Shown here: piece after piece, positions 3,483 to 42,709 of the stretch
How the letters are laid out: each line of letters starts with the position of its first letter
Numbering within the stretch: the first letter of the stretch is position 1
Virus record (IMG/VR): IMGVR_UViG_3300037248_000128
Location: 1 to 59,642 of that record
DNA from: a virus
Taxonomy: Duplodnaviria > Caudoviricetes
Reading direction: 5' to 3' (one strand)
DNA: 59,642 nt
Notes under the pieces: generated by a model
Database searches by the model: none
The model's input: only the letters and a program-made list of their open reading frames with translations
Told to the model about the DNA's origin: nothing
Program-made: the position numbers and the translations under genes

Positions 3483-3860
3483 TCAGAACGCGAGTCCCAT
3501 CCCGAACAGCCGACCGATTGGACTCCAGCAGATTTTGCCGGTGCGCTGGTAGTAGCGGAGCATCTTCACCGCCCGCGCCGCCATCTCCTTGCCTTGCCCC
3601 GACCAGTTGAGTATCGGCCATTCGAGGTACGCGCGTCGGCTTTGTCTGCGCGACATGCCCAAGCGGGCGCCGATTTCGGTTTCTGAGTAGCGCCACCATT
3701 CCATGCCCAGCGTGCGGGCCGCCATGCCCATGACGCACACCGATGGATTGTGCATATCGAAGTGGTCGCCGTGGCGCTCGATGAACGCGATCACCTTCGG
3801 CACATTGTCCACGCGGCCGATTTCCCGCGTGTAGACGACTTCAGCCCCATCAAACGGCAT
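3483..3860 (-). CDS. Hypothetical protein
   Basis: 125-aa ORF with GGAGAG RBS. Confidence 0.65.
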   Translation of the reverse strand: MPFDGAEVVYTREIGRVDNVPKVIAFIERHGDHFDMHNPSVCVMGMAARTLGMEWWRYSETEIGARLGMSRRQSRRAYLEWPILNWSGQGKEMAARAVKMLRYYQRTGKICWSPIGRLFGMGLAF

Positions 3861-3869
3861 GTCTCTCTC

Positions 3870-4103
3870 CTATGAGAAAAGGTCTTTCAGGTTCGCGGCG
3901 TAGAACCGGCCTGCCGATGGCGCGTCTTTGAAGGCGTCCCAGAGTTCGGGCGTCATCTGGCTGGTCGAGTAGGTGCGGCCGTCGCGCAGGAAGGTCACCG
4001 TCGCCTCCCCCGTTTCAGAATTGAAACTGGCCGACGCGACGTTCGAACTGTCAAAGACGTGCAGCTCGACCTTGGAGTCGTCGCCTGAGTCGCTGTAGGT
4101 CAA
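3870..4103 (-). CDS. KTSC domain protein
   Basis: SSNVASASFN...VTFLRDGRTY...FKDAPSAGRFY matches KTSC pattern. Confidence 0.8.
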   Translation of the reverse strand: MTYSDSGDDSKVELHVFDSSNVASASFNSETGEATVTFLRDGRTYSTSQMTPELWDAFKDAPSAGRFYAANLKDLFS

Positions 4104-4333: not shown

Positions 4334-4953
4334 GGCCGCCCCGCTAGGCCGCAGTAGCCGTGGCGCCCACTGTTTGGGCGCGGCCCTTCGTTCAGTCGGG
4401 CATACTCCCCGTGAACATCCCTAGCCGCTGCATCGTAGGCCGCCGCTGCAGAGTCTTCGTCCGCGAAGGTCCCTAAGTGAAGGTGAACCCCCGACTTGGC
4501 TATTTGGGCCGCCCACTTACCGCTTTTGGTCATGAAAACTCCGCGATGCCTAGACCGACCTCCACGCGCCGCTGAGTTAGCTGCGTTTTGGGCGGGCGTG
4601 ACGAGTCGTAGGTTTCCGCGACGATTGTTTAGGGTGTCGCCGTCCCGGTGATCCACAAACATGCTCTTCGGGATCACGCCCCAGATGCGGCTAGCGATTT
4701 CGCGGTGCAGGTATCCCGCATCATTTTTCGCGTAGCGGCCAGACCACCAATATCCCCACCCGGCCACGTCACTATCGATCCTGTCGATGACTACCGACCG
4801 GTCGCCGCTTATCAGAAACCGCCAATCAGGCTGCCAGCGGAACGCCATGCAGGCCGACCCGATGCAAAACCCATCTGCATCGTGCGTGCCGCCGCGATAG
4901 CCCTCAACGGGACACGCCTTGGCTTTCGCTTCATCTTCGGTCATCGGGTCCAC
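4330..4953 (-). CDS. HNH endonuclease with AP2 domain, inside a small Cys-rich protein
   Basis: VDHRDGDTLNNRRGNLR (HNH_3); RGV..KWAAQI..HLGTF..AAAAYDAAA..HGEYARLN (AP2). Confidence 0.85.
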   Translation of the reverse strand: MDPMTEDEAKAKACPVEGYRGGTHDADGFCIGSACMAFRWQPDWRFLISGDRSVVIDRIDSDVAGWGYWWSGRYAKNDAGYLHREIASRIWGVIPKSMFVDHRDGDTLNNRRGNLRLVTPAQNAANSAARGGRSRHRGVFMTKSGKWAAQIAKSGVHLHLGTFADEDSAAAAYDAAARDVHGEYARLNEGPRPNSGRHGYCGLAGRP

Positions 4954-4995
4954 CTCTCGCCCATTCTTGGGCTAAATATGCGTCTGTCGCAAGGG

Positions 4996-10362: not shown

Positions 10363-10829
10363 TCCTTCGGCGCCTTCTTCTGCCAGTCGAACCAGTCCTT
10401 CGCCTCCGCGTCGACCCAGATCTCACGGTCGCCATCGTAGCCTTTGAGCTTCCGAAACACCGCCAGCGGGGCTCCCGTACGGCCGTCGGTACCCATCGTC
10501 TTCGTCACCATGCCAATAGGCCGCGTGGTACGCCCGGCTGGGCTCGAACCAGCAACCAGACCGTTATGAGCGGCCGGCTCTACCTCTTGAGCTACGGGCG
10601 CTTCGTCGACCGCATCCATCGGATCGATCTTCGGCGCGGCCTTCGCGACAGGCGGCGGCAAAATCGGCGTCTTCGATAGCGCCTTCTTCCCCGAACCCAG
10701 TCCAGCCTCAATCAACTCCACAATCGCGGCCATCCGAGAGCCAGTCCCACGCCAAACCTCAAGGCGCTCAAACACGCTCGCCGGTATCTTCACCAGAACC
10801 GAAACCCGCGCCTCCGCCATCAGGTCCAA
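10359..10829 (-). CDS. Hypothetical protein, RHH-like N-terminus; contains a nested tRNA
   Basis: VSVLVKIPASVFERLEVWRG.GSRMAAIVELIEAGL; overlaps both neighbours. Confidence 0.6.
   Translation of the reverse strand: MDLMAEARVSVLVKIPASVFERLEVWRGTGSRMAAIVELIEAGLGSGKKALSKTPILPPPVAKAAPKIDPMDAVDEAPVAQEVEPAAHNGLVAGSSPAGRTTRPIGMVTKTMGTDGRTGAPLAVFRKLKGYDGDREIWVDAEAKDWFDWQKKAPKE
10526..10601 (-). tRNA. tRNA with CAT anticodon (Ile2-like, or Met)
   Basis: GCGCCCGTAGCTCAAGAGGTAGAGCCGGCCGCTCATAACGGTCTGGTTGCTGGTTCGAGCCCAGCCGGGCGTACCA: 76-nt cloverleaf with encoded CCA. Confidence 0.88.
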
Positions 10830-39288: not shown

Positions 39289-39316
39289 GGCGGGCAAGAT
39301 AGCCATCCTGCCTGCC
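39289..39316 (-). terminator. Hairpin closing the minus-strand pentamer unit
   Basis: GGCGGGCAAGAT-AGCC-ATCCTGCCTGCC imperfect 12-bp inverted repeat; no U-tract. Confidence 0.5.
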
Positions 39317-39391
39317 TCGCCGTGCCGGGCTATTCTTCTGCGCGCCATGCCATCACGGGCTTCTCCATGCCATTCGAGGCCGCGCCTTGCC
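39312..39391 (-). ncRNA. Single GGY-NN pentamer unit (putative guide RNA)
   Basis: 16 in-register pentamers ggcaa ggcgc ggcct cgaat ggcat ggaga agccc gtgat ggcat ggcgc gcaga agaat agccc ggcac ggcga ggcag. Confidence 0.8.
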
Positions 39392-39572: not shown

Positions 39573-39602
39573 TAAGCCAATGATACAGGTGGAAACTGTC
39601 AA
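39560..39602. promoter_or_regulatory. Candidate promoters for the two arms of the cassette
   Basis: TTGACG on plus strand (39560) and TTGACA on minus strand (39602) in an AT-rich stretch. Confidence 0.4.
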
Positions 39603-39648
39603 AAGGCAAGCCTGATTGTCGGGCACAGGGCCATGACAGGAGAACGAA

Positions 39649-40380
39649 ATGACGAAAACTGACCGAGAGAGCCTTGCCGGCGCATTGTCGTCCAAGGCAA
39701 CCTTCAAGGGCTTCAGCGTTTGGCTGGTCGGCGATACGCCGGTCATCACTCACGCGTGGAGCGAAAAAGCGCGGCGCGAGATGCTGCAGAAGCAGGTCAA
39801 GGCGACCAAGGGCGGGAAAGAGGCCCGCGATCCCGAGGCCGATTTTGTGTCGAGTCTCTACGAGATGGGCGACGGTGCCTACGGCTTCCCGGCGATGGGC
39901 GTGAAGAACTGCATTCTCAGCTCGGCGCACAAGGACAAGGGCATCCCAAGGTCGGCGGTGATGGCCGGTCTGTGGATCGACGCCGACATGGTGCGCACTC
40001 GACCGGCGCTCGCCGGCGCGGTCTGCGACATGCCGCTGATCCGCATCTACGGCACCGATCCGGAGATGCGGGAGGACATGGTGAAAATCGGCTCTGGCCT
40101 GAACAAGATCGCCAATCTGAGCTACCGCGCGCAGTTCACCGTGTGGGCGATGAAGGTGACCGGCCGGTTCAACACCACGATCCTGACGCCTGAGGCGCTG
40201 GCGTTCCTCATCCAAGAAGCTGGACTCGCGTCTGGCCTCGGCGAGTGGCGCAACGAGCGCCGCGGCATGTTCGGCGCCTTCCACCTCGCCGACGTGGACG
40301 AAGAGGCCGCATGGGAAGCCTACGCCGACGGCAAGGGCGACCTTCCGGTTCCGGCGTCCTATCGGCAAGCGGCGGAGTAA
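39649..40380 (+). CDS. Stand-alone Cas7/RAMP-like protein (VIPR-type effector candidate)
   Basis: N-terminal beta strand + G.TP.I.H; YGFPAMGVKNCI (P...K helix); C-terminal Gly-rich loop AGLASGLGEWRNERRGMFGAF; AGGAG RBS. Confidence 0.78.
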   Translation: MTKTDRESLAGALSSKATFKGFSVWLVGDTPVITHAWSEKARREMLQKQVKATKGGKEARDPEADFVSSLYEMGDGAYGFPAMGVKNCILSSAHKDKGIPRSAVMAGLWIDADMVRTRPALAGAVCDMPLIRIYGTDPEMREDMVKIGSGLNKIANLSYRAQFTVWAMKVTGRFNTTILTPEALAFLIQEAGLASGLGEWRNERRGMFGAFHLADVDEEAAWEAYADGKGDLPVPASYRQAAE

Positions 40381-40386
40381 CCAACC

Positions 40387-40890
40387 ATGAACTACGTGTT
40401 CAAGGACGCACCCGTCACGATCTTGAACGCCAAGCGCGCCGATCCCAACCGGATCGGCGCTGCCTTGGCGAAGATCGCCGAAGACGGGCACGGGCGCCTG
40501 ACGCCGAACGCCGTCGTGGAGGCCGCCCGGAATCCGCGTTCGCCGTTGCACCGGCACTTCGAATGGGACGACGCAAAGGCGGCCGAAGCATACCGGCTCG
40601 ACCAAGCTCGCGAAATCATCCGAGTTGTCCGTATCGAGGGCAACGACAATGAAGAACCCGTCCGAGCTTTCCTGTCCGTCAAGGACGCCGCTGGCGTCAG
40701 CTATCGAACGGCCGAAGACGTGCAGGGAAGCCTCGAACTTCAGCTTGCCGTCCTAAGGCAGGCTGAAGCCGATCTCGAGGCGTGGACGAAGCGCTACCGC
40801 GAACTCAGCGAAATCTGCGACGACGTGCTCAAGGCGCGCGACAAGATCAGGACGCGGCGCGAAGCGGCGGAAAGTCGTCTTCACGCCTAG
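40387..40890 (+). CDS. Partner protein of the RAMP-like gene
   Basis: LTPNAVVEAARNPRSPLHRHFEWDDAKAAEAYRLDQAREII; sits between the RAMP gene and the array. Confidence 0.75.
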   Translation: MNYVFKDAPVTILNAKRADPNRIGAALAKIAEDGHGRLTPNAVVEAARNPRSPLHRHFEWDDAKAAEAYRLDQAREIIRVVRIEGNDNEEPVRAFLSVKDAAGVSYRTAEDVQGSLELQLAVLRQAEADLEAWTKRYRELSEICDDVLKARDKIRTRREAAESRLHA

Positions 40891-40897
40891 ACGATTT

Positions 40898-41600
40898 GGC
40901 TGGGACCGGCGGCGCTTTGTCTGAGTGTCGGGCCGGGGCAGGGAAAAGCAGGCGCGGCCACGAAATGTGACGCAAGTCGGCGCGTGTCGCGAACGGGCAT
41001 GGCCGGATGGGCTGGGCTTGGTGGAGCCAGTCAGCGGAGGGAATGGCAGGTCTTTGCTCGGCAGGCGGGGCATCGAAGGTGATGGCGCATTGCGGAGCGG
41101 GAAGGTCATGTTTTGAGCGTCTCGTGTCGGCTCGTGATGGCAAGGCAGGCAGTGCTCGGGGGAGCGGGGCAGAGATCGTTGATGCAGCGCTCGGCCCAGT
41201 TAGGTGAGGCAGGCTCGGAACGGCCAGTCCCAGCAAGTGACGGAACGGCTCGGGCAGGTCGGCTTGGCAGGCGTGGACGGGCTTTGTCCGGCAGAGGCGA
41301 GCTAGTCGCGTAACGCCATGTCTCAGCTTGGCTCGGCAGGAATGGATATGCGAGGCCCGTTGTCGCCCGTCCCGGTAGGGACCGTGATGGCATCTCGCGG
41401 AACGGCGAGGCTGGATAGGAACGGCTGTGCCCGTAGCGGATTGGCTCGGTTGGGCAGGCTGGGAACGGTCGTGAGGGGCGAGCGTCGGCAATGCCCGGAC
41501 GGGAGGTGTTAGGCAAGGCTGGCGGGGTTGGGAAAGGCAAGTAGTCGATAGGACAGTCTCGTCTTCGCATCGCCCGGGCAGTCGTGGCCCAGTAGGGCTG
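40898..41600 (+). ncRNA. Array of about 11 GGY-NN pentamer units (putative guide RNAs)
   Basis: 5-nt periodicity; junction pentamers (mostly GGCAG/GGCTG) + 4-mer at 40947, 41001, 41060, 41144, 41208, 41266, 41335, 41409, 41453, 41517, 41596; no credible ORF. Confidence 0.85.
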
Positions 41601-41603
41601 GCC

Positions 41604-42059
41604 CTATGCGAACCGGCGCGCGTAAAGCGAACCGGTTATCGAGTAGCCCCGCGCTTGGAGCAAGTATTCGAGCGCGGGGTGACCGATACGACTCTCGATC
41701 ACGATGACGCACGGCTCGTCTTTCGACAAGTCCGCCTCCATGAAGTCGAACAGACCGCCCGCCGCGCCGACGTTTCGGTGCTCAGGCGCCACCCAGATCG
41801 TATCGTCGCGGGCGAACTTATGGTTATAGTGGGCGTGCCTCGGCACAACCGTCATGATGCAGTAGCCGATCAATCGACCGTTGAGGCGTGCGGTGTAGGC
41901 GAACAGCAGTCCAGCGCGGTTCGCTCTCTCGTAAAATCCGAAGTCAGGGTCAAGCGGCGTCTCGACAAGCCGCAACCCAAGTTCCGCCCAGTGCACGGGC
42001 AGCAGCGGACGCAACTCGTCGATCACGTCGCTATAGTTTTCGCGGCGGTATTCGATCAT
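41604..42059 (-). CDS. GNAT-family acetyltransferase
   Basis: GRLIGY...IWVAPEHRNVGAAGGLF...RGY. Confidence 0.8.
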   Translation of the reverse strand: MIEYRRENYSDVIDELRPLLPVHWAELGLRLVETPLDPDFGFYERANRAGLLFAYTARLNGRLIGYCIMTVVPRHAHYNHKFARDDTIWVAPEHRNVGAAGGLFDFMEADLSKDEPCVIVIESRIGHPALEYLLQARGYSITGSLYARRFA

Positions 42060-42394
42060 GAGGCGACTCCCGCAGCGGCTTCCTCCGCTTCGTGGATTTG
42101 CCAGTGAGTGTAGACGAATCCGCGAAGGCTGTTCGGGTTGGTGTAGTCCACATCCTGAAGATCGAACAGCGTCGTGCCGAGGAAGCTGGATTCGTCGATG
42201 TGGCTCTGATTGTTGCGCTGCAAGAACCCGGGGAAGTCGCGCAGGTCTATAGGGTCGAGCACATACTCGATGAGTTGCGGCCCGCCTTTGGCGACGATGC
42301 CCTGCCGGATCACGTTGTGGCTGACGCGGTGATGGAACGACCAGCGCAGCCAGTCTTCGGGCGTCTGCGGGACCTCAAGCAGGACCGGGAGCAA
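42056..42394 (-). CDS. Hypothetical virion-module protein
   Basis: Coupled ORF, His-rich. Confidence 0.65.
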   Translation of the reverse strand: MLPVLLEVPQTPEDWLRWSFHHRVSHNVIRQGIVAKGGPQLIEYVLDPIDLRDFPGFLQRNNQSHIDESSFLGTTLFDLQDVDYTNPNSLRGFVYTHWQIHEAEEAAAGVAS

Positions 42395-42397
42395 GGC

Positions 42398-42709
42398 TCA
42401 CTCGGAAGTGCGATTTGACCGTCCGCCCGGCCGCGTCGAGTCCTCGGGCAATTCGCCCATCGAGAACGGGTAAACTTTGTTGAAGCCTGTTCCAACGTCG
42501 TGTCCGGTGCCGTTCGGCGTCTGGCTGGTGAAGCCGTTCGGGTTCTGCCCCTTCGCGTACAGCCCCTCAAGGTCCCACTGACGGCTCATGTTGCCGCCGC
42601 GGGTCGCTGGCATCATCGGCACGCCGGGACTGTGGCCGGCCATGATCTCTGGCTGTCGGCCGAAGCCCACGTCGATCGCGGCTGTCGGAACGTCTCGGCG
42701 GCGGGCCAT
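42398..42709 (-). CDS. Hypothetical protein
   Basis: AGGAG RBS. Confidence 0.65.
   Translation of the reverse strand: MARRRDVPTAAIDVGFGRQPEIMAGHSPGVPMMPATRGGNMSRQWDLEGLYAKGQNPNGFTSQTPNGTGHDVGTGFNKVYPFSMGELPEDSTRPGGRSNRTSE

Follow-up and report, generated by a model that had tools for sequence, protein, structure and literature searches.

Five orphan guide units in the distal part of a probable VIPR array of a soil phage

What do the G-rich repeats in an intergenic gap of a soil phage spell out, and to what do they point? The DNA under study is a virus record of 59,642 nt (the window, by which we mean this whole stretch), which is complete and whose sequence is present in two soil metagenome DNA runs. 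The gap, at 40891-41603 (713 nt), is flanked by phage structural genes and lies between a + strand gene that ends at 40890 on the left and a - strand GNAT acetyltransferase gene that ends at 41604 on the right. A sequence-only reading had divided its distal part, 41149-41600, into guide-like units written in a dinucleotide code with a skipped wobble base, had decoded five of them into short peptides, and had suggested that, should the other guides hit defence genes, these may point to unknown defence systems and to the identity of the host.

The pentamer pattern itself is real and specific to the gap region. When the whole 59,642-nt record was scanned by Fourier analysis in 60-nt windows, 28 of the 40 strongest period-5 windows started inside 40891-41603, while another 8 fell into a second spot at 39311-39346 and 4 lay elsewhere. 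Over the gap as a whole the signal cancels, since its phase is displaced by a single base after each 45-85 nt or so. The GC skew of the gap is +0.18 to +0.36, such that the + strand is G-rich. Tandem Repeats Finder and a repeat finder left the array undetected and returned only short degenerate families in 40800-41700, and Rfam has no family in the gap. The sole Rfam match at gathering threshold in the record is a tRNA gene at 10529-10601 on the - strand (RF00005, 57.7 bits).

Arrays of G-rich pentamers are the hallmark of the VIPR (Viral Interference Programmable Repeat) systems, which are described in three 2026 preprints and have been characterised in enterobacterial and Pseudomonas phages; what is said of them here follows the available portions of these preprints. 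Vipr is a minimal RAMP protein, with an RRM core, a glycine-rich loop and a thumb, that binds vrRNAs made of GGY/NN pentamers. Double-stranded DNA is recognised by the NN pairs, and between one pair and the next a single base of the target is passed over, usually at the codon wobble position (10.64898/2026.04.26.720920). In these systems the vrRNAs are expressed, processed and co-purified with Vipr, the complex represses transcription, and the adjacent vap gene encodes a DNA-interacting fold. The published criteria are YNNGG pentamers, at least four in a row beside vipr, and 9-16 repeats per vrRNA (10.64898/2026.04.26.720920). The locus studied here comprises the following features:

39313..39391, - strand: extra vrRNA-like unit upstream of vipr, with 15 NN pairs and the end GGCga GGCa/GGC (the slash marks the junction), from the period-5 windows and reading of the sequence
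39649..40380, + strand: vipr gene (243 aa), putatively for an ancestral RAMP/Cas7-like protein, from a profile match to SUSP1 Vipr and the model fold
40387..40890, + strand: vap-like accessory gene (167 aa, phrog_15946), from its conserved position after vipr
40891..41603, + strand: whole putative vrRNA array of nGY-NN pentamers, G-rich, beginning right after the vap stop codon

No cas family was found among 18 neighbouring ORFs scanned, and blastn of 39600-42400 against phage records gave no match. A promoter-like site lies at 39609-39580 on the - strand, which is the strand of the upstream unit at 39313-39391, and none was found between vap and the array. Two relatives (L002 and L003) likewise have tracts of opposite skew on the upstream side.

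A profile built from the 243-aa protein and 25 homologues matches PDB entry 36pp_D, 'SUSP1 Vipr protein', with an E value of 4.5e-10. The alignment pairs the thumb arginine (of a YR motif) and the loop motif G(D/E)WR, and the sequence similarity spans about 80 residues only. According to the available part of the cryo-EM study of SUSP1 Vipr, the GGY triplet is held by H17, R138, D177, W178 and R179 (10.64898/2026.04.26.720927). R138, W178 and R179 align to the invariant residues R160, W200 and R201 of the family studied here, and the counterpart of D177 is E199; H17 is not covered by the alignment, and the family has an invariant H35 as a candidate equivalent. Invariant G196, G198, W200, R201, G206, F208 and G209 make up a glycine-rich loop. 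An AF2 model of the product (pLDDT 75.8) points, with modest scores, to a Cas7-like fold: among the Foldseek matches listed from the PDB, all are CRISPR RAMPs (Csm3, Cmr, Cas7-11, type VII), the best with an E value of 8e-4, at TM scores of 0.30-0.43.

The family is large, with 1760 Vipr homologues at E<=1e-5, and the association with pentamers is not confined to this phage. Of 29 genome loci, 27 have a period-5 G-rich tract beside the vipr homologue, as do 18 of 20 closer relatives, and a search of IMG/VR with the phrog_15946-type protein gave four distant relatives, all four with such a tract directly downstream. The vap homologue follows vipr directly in 45 of 46 loci examined. Its AF2 model has a pLDDT of 95 and weak winged-helix matches only (E 0.06-0.8); it ends in a long C-terminal helix, and a wide VIA-align search matched only this coiled-coil tail. 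Pfam has no match for the vap-like protein. Adjacent pairs of vipr and vap-like genes also occur in 27 Mycobacterium phage and 5 Gordonia phage records, where they are annotated as hypothetical proteins.

For the units themselves, the array was parsed by dynamic programming into pentamers, with penalised steps of 4 or 6 nt allowed. Since the parse is fitted to GGY it leans towards GGY, and any degenerate stretch read in the wrong register would yield other NN pairs; the period-5 signal described above is independent of it. From 40951 onward 133 pentamers were parsed, with G at position 1 in 75%, G at position 2 in 79% and C or T at position 3 in 70%, whereas positions 4 and 5 are near-uniform. 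Steps of 4 nt occur at GGCA/GGC junctions at 40947, 41001, 41060, 41144, 41208, 41266, 41335, 41409, 41453 and 41517, and one more 4-nt register shift is found at 41257. The distal part thereby resolves into units at 41148-41211, 41212-41260 (followed by a stub of two pentamers at 41261-41269), 41270-41338, 41339-41412, 41413-41456, 41457-41520 and 41521-c.41600, in agreement within 1 nt with the five unit borders proposed from the sequence alone. The unit lengths are irregular (44-85 nt), and the ten units from 40951 onward carry 8-16 usable NN pairs, the five in question having 12, 9, 13, 8 and 15, of which the 8 lies slightly under the published 9-16. No conserved 3′ tail was found in the array: the units abut directly, and the sole conserved end is GGCnn GGCa, after which the next unit begins.

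Relatives display the same unit plan with crisper GGC triplets and the end motif GGCaa GGCa before the junction; L003 and L004, for example, have crisp GGCNN runs that end in GGCAAGGCAAGGCAGTT. The triplets of the phage studied here are looser, with C at the third position in 57-60% as compared to 76% in the relatives, and the pentamer logo of the five units is the same as that of the rest of the array. Some relatives have long arrays (L048, 3480-4780; L049, 2920-4780), which at about 1.2-1.9 kb and dozens of units compare with about 0.7 kb here. The L001 contig ends inside its own pentamer array (4520-4990), which suggests that such arrays break assemblies.

Two units upstream of the five have targets, and they allow the code to be seen at work:

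40951..41004, + strand: unit directed against the vipr gene of rival phages (19 of 20 NN positions in the vipr of relative L048)
41064..41147, + strand: unit directed against the EANWFAAALLMP motif of ImmA/IrrE (Peptidase_M78) genes (metagenome matches)

Unit 40951 matches the vipr gene of L048 at 19 of 20 NN positions, in frame (AHKDKGVARS), and that of five further relatives at 18 of 20, where the maximum for shuffled NN strings is 17-18. Against the vipr of its own phage (site 39925, AHKDKGIPRS) it scores only 15 of 20. Guides against rivals' vipr with a lower self-match are likewise reported for SUSP1-family phages in the available part of a preprint (10.64898/2026.10.15.759431). An exact scan of IMG/VR with 9 pairs found three places, two of them in vipr genes; a match in L113, which is without vipr homology, was set aside as chance. 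The triplets of this unit are poor (GGC GGC CGA TGT CGC GTC CGC GTC GAA GGC).

Unit 41064, whose reverse decode is ...EANWFAAA(I/M)LMP, was found by an exact 11-pair metagenome scan at 11 places, all 11 of them in open frames of the form HExxH...EANWFAAALLMP, in frame and with the skipped base at the wobble position. The matches cover 24-28 of the 32 NN positions; the first pair, which was not part of the scan, agrees as well in 11 of 11. All five matches tested belong to Pfam PF06114 (Peptidase_M78/IrrE), and the contigs that carry the matches range from 44 to 69% GC. In likely-host-family genomes a 12-pair pattern of this unit matched 2 of 61 at up to 3 mismatches, versus 0 for the reversed control, and an exact 12-NN scan of IMG/VR gave 0 matches. 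Furthermore, provirus L049, whose Vipr is 61% identical, has a unit (3774-3902) that agrees with unit 41064 at 30 of 32 NN positions but, by manual count from the parse, at only about 24 of 48 triplet positions. That the NN pairs were kept while the triplets diverged is as expected from selection on the NN information alone.

A third target was found elsewhere in the clade, where an 8-pair unit of L045 (11283-11328) matches the SF2 (ResIII/DEAD) helicase gene of rival L043 (5217-5239) at 16 of 16 positions and in frame. The matched site lies just upstream of a SQIIGRGLR motif. All three targets found in the clade are in frame in genes. When 91 units from 17 arrays were compared with 1.2 Mb of sequence in which the arrays were masked, best matches with at most one mismatch appeared only under a skip of 1 (2 units), with 0 units for skips of 0, 2 and 3. 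An excess at skip 3 in an earlier unmasked search was due to duplicate arrays and was gone after masking. Judged by these matches, the 1-nt-skip code does work in this array, for units 40951 and 41064. The guide-like character and skipped wobble base that had been read from the sequence alone are thus borne out: the proposed code equals the VIPR 1-nt-skip rule as given in the available published text, and two sister units of the five find in-frame targets.

Four other explanations of the array had been considered, namely an RNA of the form (GGC NN)x12 wrapped around a TRAP-like ring protein, a terminase pac site (suggested by the L001 contig that ends in its array), an R-loop origin, and two-tetrad G-quadruplexes. 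All four were dropped after the vipr homology and the in-frame targets had been found. We consider it highly probable that 41149-41600 is the distal part of a VIPR vrRNA array, with the five units being guide tracts whose targets are most likely competing mobile elements. The identity of the locus is supported by the profile match to SUSP1 Vipr, the Cas7-like model, the adjoining period-5 tracts and the unit plan common to the relatives.

By the parse, the five units in question are:

41148..41211, + strand: first unit, 12 NN pairs (ag tc gg gg ag tc ga ag tc cc ta ga)
41212..41269, + strand: second unit, 9 NN pairs (tc ac ca cc aa ac ac tc ca), followed by a 4-nt slip (GGTc) and a stub (GGCtt GGCa)
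41270..41338, + strand: third unit, 13 NN pairs, with the reverse decode D/E K/N D/E I/M V A Y R L G K/N R T
41413..41456, + strand: fourth unit, 8 NN pairs (ta ac tg cc gc tt tc tg)
41521..41600, + strand: fifth and last unit, 15-17 NN pairs, without the GGCA/GGC end motif and with triplets that decay towards the 3′ end

As the end motif is absent from the last unit, its 3′ portion perhaps lies outside the guide. With the variable bases read as codon positions 1 and 2, we could reproduce all five peptide decodes of the sequence-only reading in the orientations given there; for unit 41148 the reverse decode is S Y G D/E L S D/E L P P D/E L. For unit 41212, which had been decoded as KDWEVVFGWVD with a 1-nt slip, the slip is indeed seen at 41257, but the K and D across it are probably end motif and not part of the message. 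To the ambiguities already listed by that reading AG (S/R), TA (Y/stop) and TG (C/W/stop) must be added.

Whether the units resemble coding sequence was assessed with a score built from codon positions 1-2 of the long ORFs of the phage, which gets the orientation right for the two units whose targets are known. Four units score better in reverse than in the forward direction, namely unit 41148 (+2.5 vs -3.7), unit 41212 (+2.4 vs -1.3), unit 41270 (+4.7 vs -2.6) and unit 41413 (+4.0 vs -3.7), whereas unit 41521 is near a tie (+1.4 vs +1.2). Summed over 11 units, the score is 39.9 as compared to 23.5+-6.1 for a composition-matched null, a value reached in 7 of 2000 trials. For the five units alone it is 15.0 as compared to 10.2+-4.1, which was reached in 234 of 2000 trials and is not significant.

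Unit 41521 with its missing preference raises the question whether some units address non-coding sites, such as promoters, other vrRNA loci or repeated decoys, in which case a peptide decode would be meaningless for them. There is precedent for this, since vrRNAs directed against other phages' vrRNAs and satellite vrRNAs directed against repeated host decoy sites are reported in the available text of one preprint (10.64898/2026.10.15.759431). However, in four of the five units one coding orientation clearly outscores the other, and all of the clade's targets named above lie in frame in genes. Moreover, apart from unit 40951, no unit in the window rose above shuffled strings in the related loci, with the period-5 tracts either masked or unmasked. 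We therefore regard this reading as distinctly unlikely and retain coding sequences of competing elements as the most likely targets.

Where, then, are the targets of the five units? In the phage's own genome their best matches are 13/16, 14/18, 16/24, 18/26 and 20/30, and all ten units of the window stay within the range of shuffled NN strings. Self-targeting by natural vrRNAs, with a limit of 80% of NN positions, is described as not seen in the available part of the main preprint (10.64898/2026.04.26.720920); the match of 13/16 corresponds to 81%, above this limit yet at chance for 16 positions. Among the related loci, searched over 744 kb and then over 1.2 Mb after addition of the rest of 15 related virus records, the five units gave nothing above chance. 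Nor did a search of the surroundings of the ImmA matches, where matches of 15/18 and 17/26 near ImmA genes were set aside as out of frame. The NN strings of the five units are not common to any of 165 units in relatives. For the upstream unit at 39313-39391 no target above chance was found, and a match of 22/30 was set aside.

Larger collections gave the same picture. Exact scans of IMG/VR with the first 10 pairs of unit 41148 and of unit 41270 returned 0 matches each, and 0 matches were found for the first 11 pairs of unit 41148 in an exact metagenome scan. All 9 pairs of unit 41212 gave five exact IMG/VR matches, which represent three distinct sequences of 37-47% GC and look like chance. The first 10 pairs of unit 41521 gave one, in which 0 of the remaining 10 positions agree, such that it too was taken as chance. 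Matches in L073-L077 and L078 were set aside for low GC, stop codons or lack of extension. Unit 41413, with its 16 specified bases, is too short for an informative collection scan and was searched for locally, as were units 41339 and 41457, which lie inside the span but were not on the list of the sequence-only reading.

Nothing above chance was thus found in the databases, which is the outcome that the sequence-only reading had named as telling against its own claim. As a negative it is weak, because the collection scans accepted exact matches only and unit 41413-41456 stood outside them; even the known target of unit 40951, with its mismatch in the tenth pair, would have escaped a 10-pair exact scan. 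The targets of the five units would most likely be either absent from the searched collections or a few bases off the exact patterns scanned.

The lack of matches for any of the five units would also be expected if they were decaying or inactive remnants, i.e., former guides that have outlived their targets and now drift in sequence. Looser triplets than in the relatives, irregular lengths, the slip at 41257 and a last unit without an end motif would be consistent with such decay, as would the non-significant codon-likeness of the five alone and the absence of their NN strings from the relatives' 165 units. Unit 40951, however, has equally poor triplets and still reaches 19 of 20 on its target. 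Furthermore, a visible target exists in 1.2 Mb for only 2 of the 91 units from 17 arrays, so that most guides of the clade are without one whatever their state, and lack of a target is common. Four of the five units also retain one positive-scoring coding orientation. Decay of these units is for these reasons unlikely in our estimate, and we continue to view them as guides.

Another possibility, put forward by the sequence-only reading, is that the units target host defence genes, including those of unknown systems, and hence reveal the host. VIPR types III and V sit in defence islands, and some systems are repurposed, according to the available part of the main preprint (10.64898/2026.04.26.720920). 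In searches that allowed up to 3 mismatches, unit 41148 gave a single match (L035, 3 mismatches) in 401 likely-host-family genomes as compared to 2 for the control, and unit 41270 was matched neither in 151 such genomes nor in 15 related virus records, whereas the positive-control guide (unit 41064) gave 2 in 61. The two identified targets of the array are a rival vipr and a peptidase family. ImmA/IrrE-type peptidase domains, to which the target of unit 41064 belongs, occur also in some defence and toxin-antitoxin modules, which would speak for defence genes as targets. As far as the available portions of the preprints go, the natural targets of VIPR are satellites, prophage regulators, competing phages and other VIPR systems (10.64898/2026.04.26.720920; 10.64898/2026.10.15.759431), which speaks against defence genes. 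We consider it very improbable that the five units are directed at host defence; the suggestion found no support, and competing mobile elements are the likelier targets.

Nor did the guides give any indication of the host. The sole lead comes from a Tianweitania genome with a related prophage, the Vipr of which is 76% identical, and the host is probably a soil alphaproteobacterium.

If the system works by analogy to that of SUSP1, the array would be transcribed together with vipr and vap and cut at the junctions. Each pentamer would then be covered by one Vipr protomer, with its nGY triplet buried and its NN pair exposed, and the NN pairs would base-pair with double-stranded DNA, with every third target base skipped. 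Binding would silence transcription of the target gene. For the five units, the natural targets would most likely be coding sequences of competing phages, prophages and other mobile elements.

The locus thus brings the VIPR code to a soil phage with a tail-less, abutting array. One of its guides is directed against the vipr of rivals and would spare the phage's own allele, while another is directed against a protein motif common to a whole peptidase family, and an NN string has been retained in two distant phages although the intervening triplets diverged. With the skip at the wobble position, a guide would in effect specify a short protein motif and not one particular DNA allele, as unit 41064 does for the EANWFAAALLMP motif of ImmA/IrrE peptidases in contigs of 44-69% GC. 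At present the five units add little to this, as they are correctly decoded guides in a clade where lack of a target is common; their value lies in the concrete patterns that they provide for a mismatch-tolerant search of soil viromes. We tentatively suggest, while holding it to be rather doubtful, that these orphan guides name conserved motifs of gene families which this phage group must silence, in soil mobile elements that are unsampled or unrecognised. If this were true, the orphan guides across the loci of the 1760 Vipr homologues could serve as an inventory of conflict genes, with novel ones among them.

How does this locus compare with known systems? By analogy, it resembles the Cas7 filaments of class 1 CRISPR in that a RAMP protein would polymerise on a guide RNA, with pairing broken at fixed intervals, and it likewise has a guide array with conserved junctions and avoidance of self-targets. 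In contrast, class 1 CRISPR has direct repeats of 20 nt or more, contiguous spacers and cas1, cas2 and other cas genes, none of which were found here, with cas genes looked for among 18 neighbouring ORFs. The phage-borne system also differs in how information is laid out, with 2 of every 5 guide bases read against 2 of every 3 target bases.

Closer parallels are found within VIPR, as far as the available portions of the preprints allow the comparison. The solo vrRNAs of SUSP1-family phages that are directed against vipr (10.64898/2026.10.15.759431) are alike in that the guide fits the rival better than the carrier, as unit 40951 does with 19/20 vs 15/20. Unlike those, the guide described here resides in a vipr-carrying, unrelated phage and addresses a site in the middle of the gene (AHKDKGVARS).

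Type II VIPR, as described for Escherichia phage SUSP1 and a Pseudomonas fulva prophage, shares with this locus the aligned thumb arginine and the WR of the G-loop in Vipr, a two-gene cassette of vipr and a vap or vap-like gene, and pentamer guides downstream of the genes with one more upstream. It is also alike in the wobble-aligned 1-nt-skip rule, as seen here for units 40951 and 41064, the lack of self-targets and a guide against rivals' vipr. Type II, however, has strict GGY triplets and an Asp (D177) where this phage has nGY triplets and a Glu at the matching residue, and its vrRNAs end in a conserved 3′ tail of about 40 nt with a pseudoknot, whereas here the units abut via the 4-nt GGCA/GGC step. 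Furthermore, the upstream unit here is on the opposite strand, and the likely host is different, probably being a soil alphaproteobacterium. Lacking a conserved 3′ tail, the array is therefore not of the SUSP1-type (type II) architecture.

Seven VIPR types are distinguished in the available text, and they include 'staggered arrays', in which vrRNAs overlap by 1 nt (10.64898/2026.04.26.720920, fig. S18 legend). Compared by this figure legend only, the tail-less array of the soil phage fits the 'staggered' kind: in both, units follow each other with neither spacer nor tail between them, and every junction costs the register one base, as it would if that base were common to adjacent vrRNAs.
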